DNA of 64,000 nucleotides from a virus (taxonomy: Duplodnaviria > Heunggongvirae > Uroviricota > Caudoviricetes), in the IMG/VR virus record IMGVR_UViG_646311923_000012, one strand, 5' to 3'. Position numbers: made by a program. How positions within the stretch are numbered: position 1 is the stretch's first letter; each line of letters begins with the position of its first letter. Below are positions 18,001 through 21,000 of the stretch, in pieces.

Positions 18001-21000
18001 CTGATGCAGTGGAAACGGCAATTCCGGACAACGAAAAAACCGAATGCAAAGTGGAAGTCGAACCATCTGTAGAGCGTGAGGGGCCGTTCTACTTCCTCTT
18101 CACCGACAAGGATGGCGAAAAATACGGTCGCGCAAACAAACTTTCTGGTCTGGATAAGGCACTGGCTGCCGGGGCTACTGAAATCACGAAAGAAGAATAT
18201 CTTGCCCGCAAAAACGGAACATACACGGACTTACCGCAAAATGTGGATACCGCTGAAGATTCCGTACAACCGGAGCCGGTAAAAGTTACCGCTGACGAAG
18301 TAAACAAAATTATGCAGGCAGCCAATATCAGCCAGCCTGACGCCGATAAATTGCTTGCTGCATCACGTGGTGAATTTGTTGAAGGGATTAGCGATCCGAA
18401 TGATCCGAAATGGGTGAAGGGGATTGAAACCTGCGATTCTGTGAACCAGAACCAGCAAGAATCGGAACAGAACGACCAGAAAACGGAACAAAACAGCCCA
18501 AATGCGCAACAAAACGAGCCAGAAACGAAACAGGAGCCGGAAAAAGCCTGCACCGCCTGCGGTCAGACCGGCGGCGGTAGCTGCCCTGATTGTGGTGCGG
18601 TGATAAGTGACGCAACATACCAGGAAATATTCGATGAAGAGAATCAGCCTGAAGTTCAGGAAAATGATCCGGAGGAAATGGAAGGCACTGCGCATCAGCA
18701 CAAGGAGAACACTGGCGGCAATCAGCATCATGCCAGCGATAGTGAAACTGGCGAGGCGTCAGATCCCTTAATTAAGGCGAACGGTCATCATAATCTCACA
18801 TCCACCAGCAGAGCGGGGATTCATCTGATGATCGACCTTGAAACCATGGGAAAAAATCCTGATGCCCCGATTATCTCAATAGGTGCAATATTTTTCGATC
18901 CGCAAACCGGAGAGATGGGGCCAGAATTCAGCAAAACTATCGATCTGGAAACTGCTGGCGGAGTCATTGATCGGGACACCATTAAGTGGTGGCTGAAACA
19001 GTCACGCGAAGCGCAATCCGCCATTCTTACCGATGAAATCCCGTTAGATGATGCACTGCTGCAATTACGGGAATTTATCGACGAAAACTCCGGTGAATTT
19101 TTTGTTCAGGTCTGGGGTAACGGTGCAACTTTCGACAACGTGATTTTACGCCGTTCATATGAACGGCAGGGGATCCCCTGCCCGTGGCGTTACACCAATG
19201 ATCGCGATGTAAGAACGATGGTTGCTCTGGGACTGGTGATGGATTTCGACGCAAGAACGACTATTCCATTCGAAGGTGAACGCCATAACGCTCTGAACGA
19301 TGCACGTTACCAGGCGAAATACGTTTCAGCCATCTGGCAAAAACTGCTCCCGAGTCAGGCTGATTTTTGATGTTCAACCCATATCGCCGCCCACCAGCTA
19401 TAGTGGCGGCGGTCATGCTGTAAAGGCACGTGACCACATGTACGAATTAACTCTATCTCCAGCAGAGATTAAAGAGATCACGAAATACGAGCGATACACA
19501 AAACAGCAACACCAGTTAAGACTGCACGGCATCCCATTTGTAATCGGCCCTAAAAACGAACCCATAGTTCTCCGCAGGGATATTCCACACGGTCTGACAA
19601 CGATGCCAAAAACATCTGAACTGGTTTCTGCTGAACCCGATTTTGAGGCGCTGAACAATGGGAAGACCAAGAAAAAATAAAAAAGATAATGTACTGCCAC
19701 CGCGGGTTAGATCGAATGGTTACAGTTACGTGTGGAAACCCGAAGGAAGTACAAGAAGTATAGGGCTAGGAAGAGTGCGGAAAACCAGCGTAGCTAAAGT
19801 CTGGCAAAATTATGAACTGGAAAAAGCAAAACTCCACAACATAATGACCGTAGCTAAATTATGGCACATGTTTATGGACTCCCCTGCATTTACAGAACTG
19901 GCCCCCCGAACCCAAAAAGATTATCGACAACATCAGAAGGCGTTGCTGATGGTATTCGGAAAAGTGCTTGCTGATAATGTCAAAACTGAGCAGGTAAGAA
20001 TTTTCATGGATAAACGAGGGCTTGAGAGCAAGACCCAGGCAAATCATGAACTGGCAAGCCTGAGTCGAGTATACGGGTGGGGATATGAGCGTGGGTATGT
20101 GAAGAATAACCCATGCAAAGGAGTCAGAAAATTCTCTCTTAAAGCCCGCACTGTTTACATCACCGATGAACAGTATGCGGCGATATATGCGGAAGCAATT
20201 CCACAGTTACGCATTGCAATGGAGATTTCCTATCTCTGTGCGGCAAGACTCGGTGATGTGCTTGAGTTGAAATGGCAGGATATTATGGATAAAGGGATCT
20301 ACATTGAGCAAAACAAAACCGGCACCAAACAAATCAAGGAATGGTCACCGCGATTACGTACAGCGATCCAGTTAGCCCGAAATGTATCTTCCTGTACATG
20401 CGAATATGTGATCAATACAACCAAAGGCGGGAAAGTCATAGCTAAAACGCTGAATAACTGGTGGAATCAGGCTAAACGCGCAGCCGAGCAAAAAGTTGGC
20501 GTTCCGTTCGGGTGCAATTTTCACGACATAAAAGCCAAGGGGATCTCAGATTACGAAGGCAGCAGTCGCGACAAACAAATTTTCAGCGGGCATAAAACAG
20601 AAAATCAGGTGTTGATTTACGATCGTAAAACAAAAATCACACCAACACTGGATTTGCCGCTCGTGGTTAGCAAGTAGACAATCCAGAAAAATTTCTGGCA
20701 AAAAGACTTGGTATACTAGCTATGAGCAACTTCCTAATACCTTGATTTTTCTTGGTGTTAAATTTGATTAACTTTTCAGCAATTTCACGTATTGCACTGA
20801 TTTTTATTTGTTTTTCTTCGGTCTTGAAAACCGGCGACCCGAAAGGGTTCCAGAGTTCGAATCTCTGCGCTTCCGCCAAATAATCAAGGGGTTACCAAAT
20901 GGTAGCCCCTTTGTTTTTTGGCTCTTGGTATAAACTTGGTATACCAATTGGTATATTTTTATTCGGATGAGATTATCGGTCATGAGCGGAACCTCAGGTT

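Follow-up and report, generated by a model that had tools for sequence, protein, structure and literature searches.

The DNA between the int gene that ends at position 20677 and the effector cargo that begins at 20973 is very probably an attP-like (P-O-P') joint between two distinct lambdoid prophages, referred to here as A and B, which lie in tandem in the serT gene of a host that, judged by its matches to sequenced genomes, is an EHEC-type E. coli (O103:H2/O26:H11). The window, by which we mean the whole 64,000-nt stretch of DNA that was analysed, contains the early region and int of prophage A to the left of the joint, and the cargo, tail, head, lysis and Q/tRNA regions of prophage B to its right. 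The far ends of the array fall outside this 64-kb window; the full array is documented in matching genomes, and the rest of both prophages is visible in O103:H2 strain 129. Across positions 20300-21400, the window was 100% identical to five complete O103:H2-type genomes, and many O26:H11 genomes were 99.7% identical to it up to 21154. When the window was compared position by position with strain 129, mismatches were numerous outside the joint, presumably owing to indels. The original prediction of a P-O-P' junction between tandem prophages was borne out by the attP of a free phage (Evi), by the presence of three att sites in strain 129, and by a breakpoint in strain RM13322, each of which is described below. 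The features on which the argument depends are as follows.

19438..19680, + strand: DUF4224 gene, overlapping the start of int (Pfam PF13986, E=9e-9)
19658..20677, + strand: int of prophage A (ORF of 339 aa; TAG stop at 20675-20677)
20683..20698: palindrome CCAGAAA-AA-TTTCTGG, just 3' of the int stop, read from the sequence
20707..20715, + strand: predicted arm-type repeat CTTGGTATA, the distal one, on the int side; 171 nt before the base that follows CCA
20735..20747, - strand: IHF-consensus match (AATCAAGGTATTA; pattern WATCAANNNNTTR), between the distal repeat and the core
20751..20759, + strand: degenerate repeat, CTTGGTGTT, 2 mismatches; possible second arm site, weak
20819..20878, + strand: att core, the 3' 60 nt of serT (tRNA-Ser UGA), identical to the annotated serT end
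20819-20822 and 20830-20834, + strand: anticodon stem halves, within the att core
20823-20829, + strand: anticodon loop (7 nt), within the att core; likely crossover region
20882..20894, + strand: second IHF-consensus match (pattern WATCAANNNNTTR), overlapping the terminator hairpin
20886..20919, + strand: hairpin (20886-20911) followed by a T-run, from a terminator scan
20924..20955, + strand: predicted arm-type triple direct repeat, CTTGGTATA, CTTGGTATA and aTTGGTATA, 46, 57 and 69 nt after CCA
20956..20970: end of the arm common to A and B, from alignment with the strain 129 serT-side site; cargo differs beyond 20970
20973..21365, + strand: espV pseudogene fragment (espV'), first cargo of prophage B (RefSeq annotation of identical sequence)
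21811..22563, + strand: tccP2, an EspF-repeat effector, cargo of prophage B (Pfam EspF repeat, E=2e-110; annotated TccP2, WP_012816795.1)
22690..24280, - strand: tail-fibre genes of prophage B, start of its late region (ORFs and annotation)

The end of int, the serT-like fragment without a 5' half, and the hairpin and T-run behind it were all found where the original prediction had placed them. The segment from 20819 to 20878 matches the last 60 nt of the full serT gene in strain 129 and in the prophage-free strain 1FA; it begins at tRNA position 28, inside the anticodon stem, and its CCA ends at 20878. An ARAGORN search and an Rfam scan at permissive E-value called no tRNA or other RNA family at the junction, as expected for a mere fragment of a tRNA, and the Rfam matches obtained there were chance-level MicX and snoRNA only. 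The terminator scan reported the hairpin and T-run as the sole terminator-like site within 20500-21200. This phage-borne hairpin also stands 3' of the full serT in strains 129 and RM13322, whereas a related but distinct native hairpin follows serT at the empty site and on the yccA side; by this comparison, the phage hairpin replaces the native serT terminator at the site that retains the full tRNA.

In four- and five-way alignments, all three sites of the array (serT side, joint and yccA side) were set against the empty serT-yccA locus of strain 1FA. With O for the 60-nt serT segment, Y for the 141-bp arm that follows int, X for the arm that bears the phage hairpin and triple repeat, and B and B' for the bacterial flanks, the empty site reads B-O-B', the serT side B-O-X, the joint Y-O-X and the yccA side Y-O-B'. 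The three occupied sites have only the 60-nt core in common, and their flanks match the empty site: the prophage-free locus, which had been proposed as the comparison to make, accounted for the outer flanks of the array, on the left of the far-left att site and on the right of the far-right one. A full tRNA copy had been anticipated at the far end of the array, and a full serT was indeed found beside hyaA, with a second fragment after the prophage B int beside yccA; NZ_AP038976.1 contains three copies of the core, namely the full serT by hyaA, the joint centrally and the fragment by yccA. The X arms of A and B are alike to 20970 except for two small T-run differences and then give way to different cargo, and the int-side arms of the two prophages are identical. 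attB, attL, the junction, attR and the Evi attP have the same core, in which identity begins exactly at 20819.

Two further arrangements bear directly on the identity of the joint. Coliphage Evi, which was isolated from infant faeces (PMC10910852), has a contiguous int-Y-O-X-espV' stretch, 94% identical to that of the window, in the middle of a 40-kb phage genome, with all four repeats intact. Since a free phage carries the same int-arm-core-arm-espV' stretch contiguously, the joint corresponds to an attP. In strain RM13322, a full serT runs directly into the same X-espV'-tccP2-type right half, and the breakpoint falls exactly at 20819. What adjoins this right half on its left is therefore either bacterial DNA or another phage's int arm, as site-specific gain or loss of prophage A predicts.

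Because the core is the same in all partners, the crossover leaves no trace within it. The point at which identity begins, and the analogy with a well-established class of anticodon-loop tRNA sites, place the crossover probably within the anticodon loop at 20823-20829, flanked by the anticodon-stem halves. An anticodon-loop class of tRNA integration sites is reportedly distinguished in the 2002 classification of Williams. As in that class, the identity between attP and attB spans the anticodon stem to the CCA end, so that the phage copy restores the tRNA.

The order of genes in strain 129 is hyaA, full serT, prophage A, joint, prophage B, serT fragment, yccA. Prophage A of this strain contains a tail-fibre-assembly remnant, espK, tail, head, lysis, the Q/tRNA region, the early region, the DUF4224 gene and int, and prophage B contains espV', tccP2, tail fibres, lom, J and onward to a lambda-like head, terminase, lysis, tRNAs, Q, the early region, the DUF4224 gene and int. 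The two prophages differ in their head, terminase and replication modules; they share approximately 4 kb at 92% identity around int-xis-exo and approximately 4.8 kb at 91% identity around the Q/tRNA region. The original prediction had tccP and fibre genes of the tail end of prophage B immediately to the right of the joint. The fibres and an effector are there, but the effector is tccP2 rather than tccP, and the espV fragment, for which a Pfam search of 20973..21365 gave no match, intervenes. The int gene adjoining the joint is frameshifted in O26 strain 11368, and several structural genes of strain 129 are annotated as frameshifted; for these reasons, either prophage, or both, may be defective, and the joint may have fallen out of use.

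The prophage A int encodes a tyrosine recombinase (Pfam Phage_integrase). Its product aligned over residues 1-319 with full-length lambda Int (PDB 1z1b; E=5.6e-20), and this alignment covers the N-terminal arm-binding domain, including the elements MGRxR...LPP...GY.Y; beginning as it does at residue 1, the alignment indicates that this domain is present besides the core-binding and catalytic domains. By these sequence criteria, the protein is a heterobivalent tyrosine integrase of the lambda type. In strain 129, the same protein, WP_001299351.1, is annotated as the Int of both prophage A and prophage B. The gene at 19438..19680 is annotated there as a DUF4224 protein, and in phages mEp390 and Fostie the gene at the matching position, upstream of int, is annotated as an excisionase; the product of the DUF4224 gene is a candidate excisionase or directionality factor. 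The palindrome at 20683..20698 is kept in phage Evi and at the yccA-side att site.

As summarized in the feature list, the predicted arm-type repeats occur on both sides of the core. Exact copies of TTGGTATA on the + strand begin at 20708, 20925, 20936 and 20948, and an inverted copy overlaps these at 20940-20947; when the preceding base is included, the repeat unit is (C)TTGGTATA, with starts at 20707/8, 20924/5, 20935/6 and 20947/8. The original prediction, which had put the repeats at 20707, 20926, 20937 and 20949, was right in having one copy to the left of the core and three to the right, and was off by 1 nt for each. The 64-kb window contains 7 copies of TTGGTATA against 1.09 expected, a number reached in 0 of 100 shuffles, and 5 of the 7 fall within 250 bp at the junction. 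The distal repeat at 20707..20715 is kept in Evi despite differing flanking bases; a repeat lies at the same offset in phages Chris1, KpF5 and ST64B, and at about -170 in mEp390. The degenerate repeat at 20751 is weak evidence for a further site, since chance alone would give approximately 0.4 such matches in 298 bp. The pattern WATCAANNNNTTR is a weak consensus, and its two occurrences in the arms are consensus matches only. The presence of the TTGGTATA repeats on both arms, their enrichment, and the conservation of their positions across relatives support, by comparison, the prediction that they are arm-type sites, which the Int N-terminal domain would bind.

A search of genome contigs with the Int protein returned two loci only, in E. 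albertii and Kluyvera, and the Int relatives used for comparison of attP regions were taken from a tblastn search against phage records. Offsets were oriented by the tRNA and counted from the base after CCA; for serU cores, 3 nt were subtracted, since the reference tRNA is annotated without CCA. The sites compare as follows.

Window and Evi (Int identity of Evi, 97%): serT core; motif TTGGTATA; distal repeat at -171; proximal repeats at +46, +57 and +69 (in Evi, +47, +58 and +70)
Chris1 (Int 60%): serU core; motif TTGGTATA; distal -173; proximal +46, +57 and +70
BUCT708 (Int 54%): serT core; motif CTTAGAAT; no exact distal copy; proximal +47, +58 and +71
606R7, prophage end only (Int 55%): serU core; motif CTTGGAAT; proximal +45, +55 and +68
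KpF5 (Int 50%): serU core; motif TGAGAAAA; distal -172, with an inverted copy at -109; proximal +46, +56 and +69
ST64B (Int 50%): serU core; motif TGAGAAAA; distal -172; proximal +46, +56 and +69
mEp390 (Int 42%): tRNA-Leu-like core; four copies of ATGGCGAA after int, then a hairpin and the tRNA fragment; distal at about -170

The triple repeat is present at +45 to +71 in Chris1, BUCT708, 606R7, KpF5 and ST64B, which together use four different motifs. In five full attP sites of relatives (Int identities of 42-60%; serT, serU or tRNA-Leu cores), three direct 8-mers follow the tRNA end and one repeat stands approximately 170 nt upstream of it; BUCT708 is without an exact distal copy. The geometry that we describe is drawn from these five full sites together with three partly consistent relatives, among which ZF40 and Fostie showed, by exact k-mer counting, two clear proximal repeats only, plus one inverted copy on the other arm. 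The original prediction had made the att interpretation depend on a match of the 60-mer to serT and on the recurrence of the repeats in related phage att regions. The 60-mer was identical, and the repeats are present in related attP sites, being conserved in that of Evi and holding their positions in the five full sites even where the motif has changed.

In a comparison of the Int sequences, the 8-mer motif changes as the N-terminal domain diverges. Over the N-terminal 62 residues, identity to the Int of the window was 53% for Chris1, which has the same motif; 45% for BUCT708 and 42% for 606R7, whose motifs differ at one or two positions; and 31% for KpF5 and ST64B, whose motif is unrelated. 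Over the remainder of Int, identities for these five phages were 52-61%. Arm-type sites are expected to show just such a signature, namely a fixed geometry in which the motif drifts together with the arm-binding domain. The att modules of ST64B, KpF5, Chris1, BUCT708 and mEp390 thus resemble the one described here in Int family (42-60%), in a tRNA fragment that starts from the anticodon stem, and in repeat geometry. The motif is identical to that of the window in Chris1, but CTTAGAAT, CTTGGAAT, TGAGAAAA and ATGGCGAA are found in other relatives, and most of their cores are serU or tRNA-Leu. The relatives also differ from the window in having the triple repeat directly 3' of int, where it abuts or overlaps the int stop codon with no adjoining effector; relative to int, the att cassette of the window and Evi is inverted with respect to all eight relatives examined.

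We put forward, tentatively and as a conjecture, that this Int family may constitute a natural specificity series, in which a rigid attP scaffold with one site near -170 and three near +46, +57 and +70 from the tRNA end is retained, the 8-bp arm motif co-evolves with the N-terminal domain, and the core switches among serT, serU and tRNA-Leu; that the cassette may have been flipped in the EHEC lineage; and that serT may serve as a growth point at which effector phages are stacked through a regenerated attP. If so, the flipped cassette would put effector cargo, and not int, directly 3' of the restored tRNA.

In the mechanism that we propose for the tandem array, most likely site-specific recombination of the standard lambda type, the catalytic and core-binding domains of Int would act on the serT core, with the crossover probably in the anticodon loop, the N-terminal domain would bind the (C)TTGGTATA repeats on both arms (at -171 and at +46, +57 and +69), and IHF-type bends would probably bring the arms to the core. 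Recombination between the attP of a first phage and serT would leave a phage-derived fragment that restores serT and brings its own terminator, and the attP of a second phage with the same Int specificity would then recombine with one of the resulting hybrid sites. The expected outcome is that the hyaA end keeps a full serT joined to a phage arm, that attP is re-formed where the two prophages meet, and that the yccA end has a phage arm, a serT fragment and the native terminator. The joint could then act as the right-hand excision site for prophage A and as the left-hand one for prophage B, with, we infer, the involvement of Xis. Prophage B probably arrived first and A second, at the serT-side site of B, because a B-type prophage occurs alone beside serT in RM13322 and approximately 480 genomes match the full-serT-X-espV' arrangement; an ancestral array that had later lost A would look no different.

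Of 5,426 complete E. coli genomes, 51 have the joint, among them that of O26:H11 strain 11368. The query used for this count spans the espV' side and cannot be satisfied by single lysogens; the number is a minimum, since it leaves out joints that have other cargo. A count of 746 genomes, obtained by requiring 80% coverage of 20680-20965, was rejected as inflated, since single lysogens also pass owing to the homology between the phage hairpin and the native serT terminator. The matches to the full-serT-X-espV' arrangement noted above were at >=99% identity. In PPompW phages, a decayed fossil copy of this attP lies within the effector region.

Other origins of the joint, and other roles for its repeats, were weighed against the tandem site-specific insertion proposed above. 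The array might have been assembled by homologous recombination within the shared int/xis/exo or Q-region sequences, the joint then being the intact attP of the incoming phage. The shared stretches of A and B (approximately 4 kb at 92% and 4.8 kb at 91%) offer ample substrate for such an event, and its outcome, an attP between two prophages, would look identical. Yet the B-type right half in RM13322 joins a full serT with its breakpoint exactly at the core boundary, which is what site-specific exchange predicts, and both prophages of the O103 type have an intact int with identical protein sequence; we regard assembly by homologous recombination as unlikely. That the joint is instead a fossil att site inside one composite prophage, or a misjoin made in assembly across repeated int-att DNA, seems to us extremely improbable, even granting that fossil copies of this attP exist in other prophages, such as the PPompW phages, and that repeated prophage DNA is a known hazard for assembly. 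The core and arms are intact and not decayed, complete and different lambdoid gene sets lie on either side (two int genes, two Q/tRNA/lysis regions, and differing head and tail modules), and the 51 genomes in which the joint is found were finished independently.

A different possibility concerns the repeats rather than the joint: the TTGGTATA copies might be operators or promoter elements for the espV/tccP2 cargo, or incidental AT-rich repeats past the terminator. Their designation as arm sites rests on sequence comparison, and the triple repeat does lie just upstream of the cargo genes and in the same orientation. However, the same 3+1 layout and distances recur in Chris1, ST64B, KpF5, BUCT708 and mEp390, without adjoining effector cargo; the opposite arm has a further copy, at -171; changes in the motif parallel those in the Int N-terminal domain; and prophage A has the same arm with different cargo. 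The position of the triple repeat at the int stop codon in the relatives, with no effector beside it, is hard to reconcile with a role in cargo regulation, which we consider improbable. A single composite prophage, misassembly and cargo-regulatory repeats were all rejected on the above evidence, in favour of an attP-like joint with probable arm-type sites on both sides.

The arrangement has a clear counterpart in phage lambda, for whose Int structures are available (1z1b and 5j0n). The two systems are alike in a heterobivalent Int with an N-terminal arm-binding domain, in an attP of approximately 260 bp that has three direct arm repeats (here predicted) to one side of the core and a distal site to the opposite side, and in an xis-like gene that overlaps the start of int; tandem lambda lysogens, as known from classical genetics, have the same B-O-P', P-O-P' and P-O-B' sites. 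They differ in that the lambda core is a 15-bp intergenic sequence and the present one a 60-nt tRNA 3' segment, in that the arm motif here is TTGGTATA and not the lambda arm consensus, and in the low identity, only approximately 28%, of this Int to the HK022/lambda type. Moreover, the triple repeat here is on the arm far from int, and a terminator hairpin separates it from the presumed crossover, approximately 100-120 bp away.

The O26/O103/O111 EHEC genome paper is probably the first description of the locus. Tandem prophages at serT, designated 'serT_1-3', have been described for CC119 O165:H25 STEC (PMC10132054), and tandem prophage sites for O121:H19 (PMC8767318). In these two papers, two or three lambdoid prophages lie in tandem and the serT site is the same; they catalogue integration sites, apparently without dissection of arm repeats, and concern lineages other than the O103/O26 type. 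From these papers on other STEC, and from public annotated genomes that contain this very joint, the locus must be considered already published. The literature that we searched contained no description of the TTGGTATA arm motif, of the constant 3+1 geometry among the ST64B/Chris1/mEp390 Int relatives, or of the cassette inversion in EHEC and Evi, which we regard as small additions. In summary, the junction is real but ordinary; it is known in kind and at this locus, it is textbook biology, and it leaves current understanding unchanged.

Within that understanding, the joint explains how a single tRNA gene of O103/O26 EHEC came to be occupied by two effector prophages, one with espK and the other with espV' and tccP2. 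The predicted arm motif and the fixed geometry provide a hypothesis for using or reprogramming this integrase. The joint and the outer att sites are points of independent gain or loss of either prophage, and are thus of relevance to the turnover of virulence genes and to the assembly and typing of these repeat-rich genomes.

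In the lineage represented by the window, and in the free coliphage Evi, whose attP matches, the attP cassette of about 260 bp (window 20700-20960), which consists of a distal repeat, the 60-nt serT 3' core, a hairpin and a triple repeat, was observed to be inverted relative to int. The single distal repeat adjoins int in these cases, and the triple repeat adjoins the cargo genes; in all eight of the related-integrase phages that we compared (L007-L011 and L015-L017), the triple repeat lies downstream of int, directly after its stop codon. As a consequence of the inversion, int is placed at the end of the prophage that is distant from the intact tRNA gene, and the effector cargo is placed immediately downstream of that gene. 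The right edge of the core is also polymorphic at one base, the one directly after the serT CCA: O103 strain 129 has G here at its yccA-side site (L002, 15000), versus A in the empty serT-yccA site of strain 1FA (L013, 761) and in all phage copies.

The arm that prophages A and B have in common ends at window position 20970, and differing cargo is joined at 20970/20971. Beyond this boundary, prophage B carries espV' and tccP2, and prophage A carries a tail-fibre-assembly remnant and espK (L003, a strain 129 locus, 32365-32505 and 30615-31976); the cargo genes at the boundary have the same orientation as serT. The arm boundary behaves as a cargo exchange point.

A separate cluster of phage-encoded tRNA genes lies downstream of Q in each prophage, on the minus strand at window 2236-2487 and 51560-51812. 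By ARAGORN, the prophage B cluster contains Arg and Met tRNA genes; that of prophage A contains Arg, Arg and Met/Ile-type genes, after which come TerB-like and DUF3927 genes and esterase genes of the nanS-p type; stx is absent from the prophage A position that carries it in Stx phages. In strain 129 (L001, L003), the annotation marks frameshifts in several structural genes, namely those for the terminase large subunit and portal in prophage A, and for J and the tape measure in prophage B, and in O26 11368 (L012) the int gene adjoining the joint is frameshifted. These frameshifts may represent real decay or homopolymer sequencing errors, and the inducibility of either prophage is therefore uncertain.

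A decayed copy of the whole window-type attP is carried by prophages that integrate at ompW, at the following location:

L014 3440-3720 (LC567822.1, about 37,900-38,160): decayed attP copy; the same in nine other PPompW / Stx2a phage records

The copy is located between espO and the gene for tail host specificity, and its parts are TTGGTACA, an arm that has been shortened, a serT core with mutations, the hairpin and a single TTGGTATA. Apparently it is a fossil att site within the effector cargo region, which suggests that modules were exchanged in the past with phages that integrate at serT.
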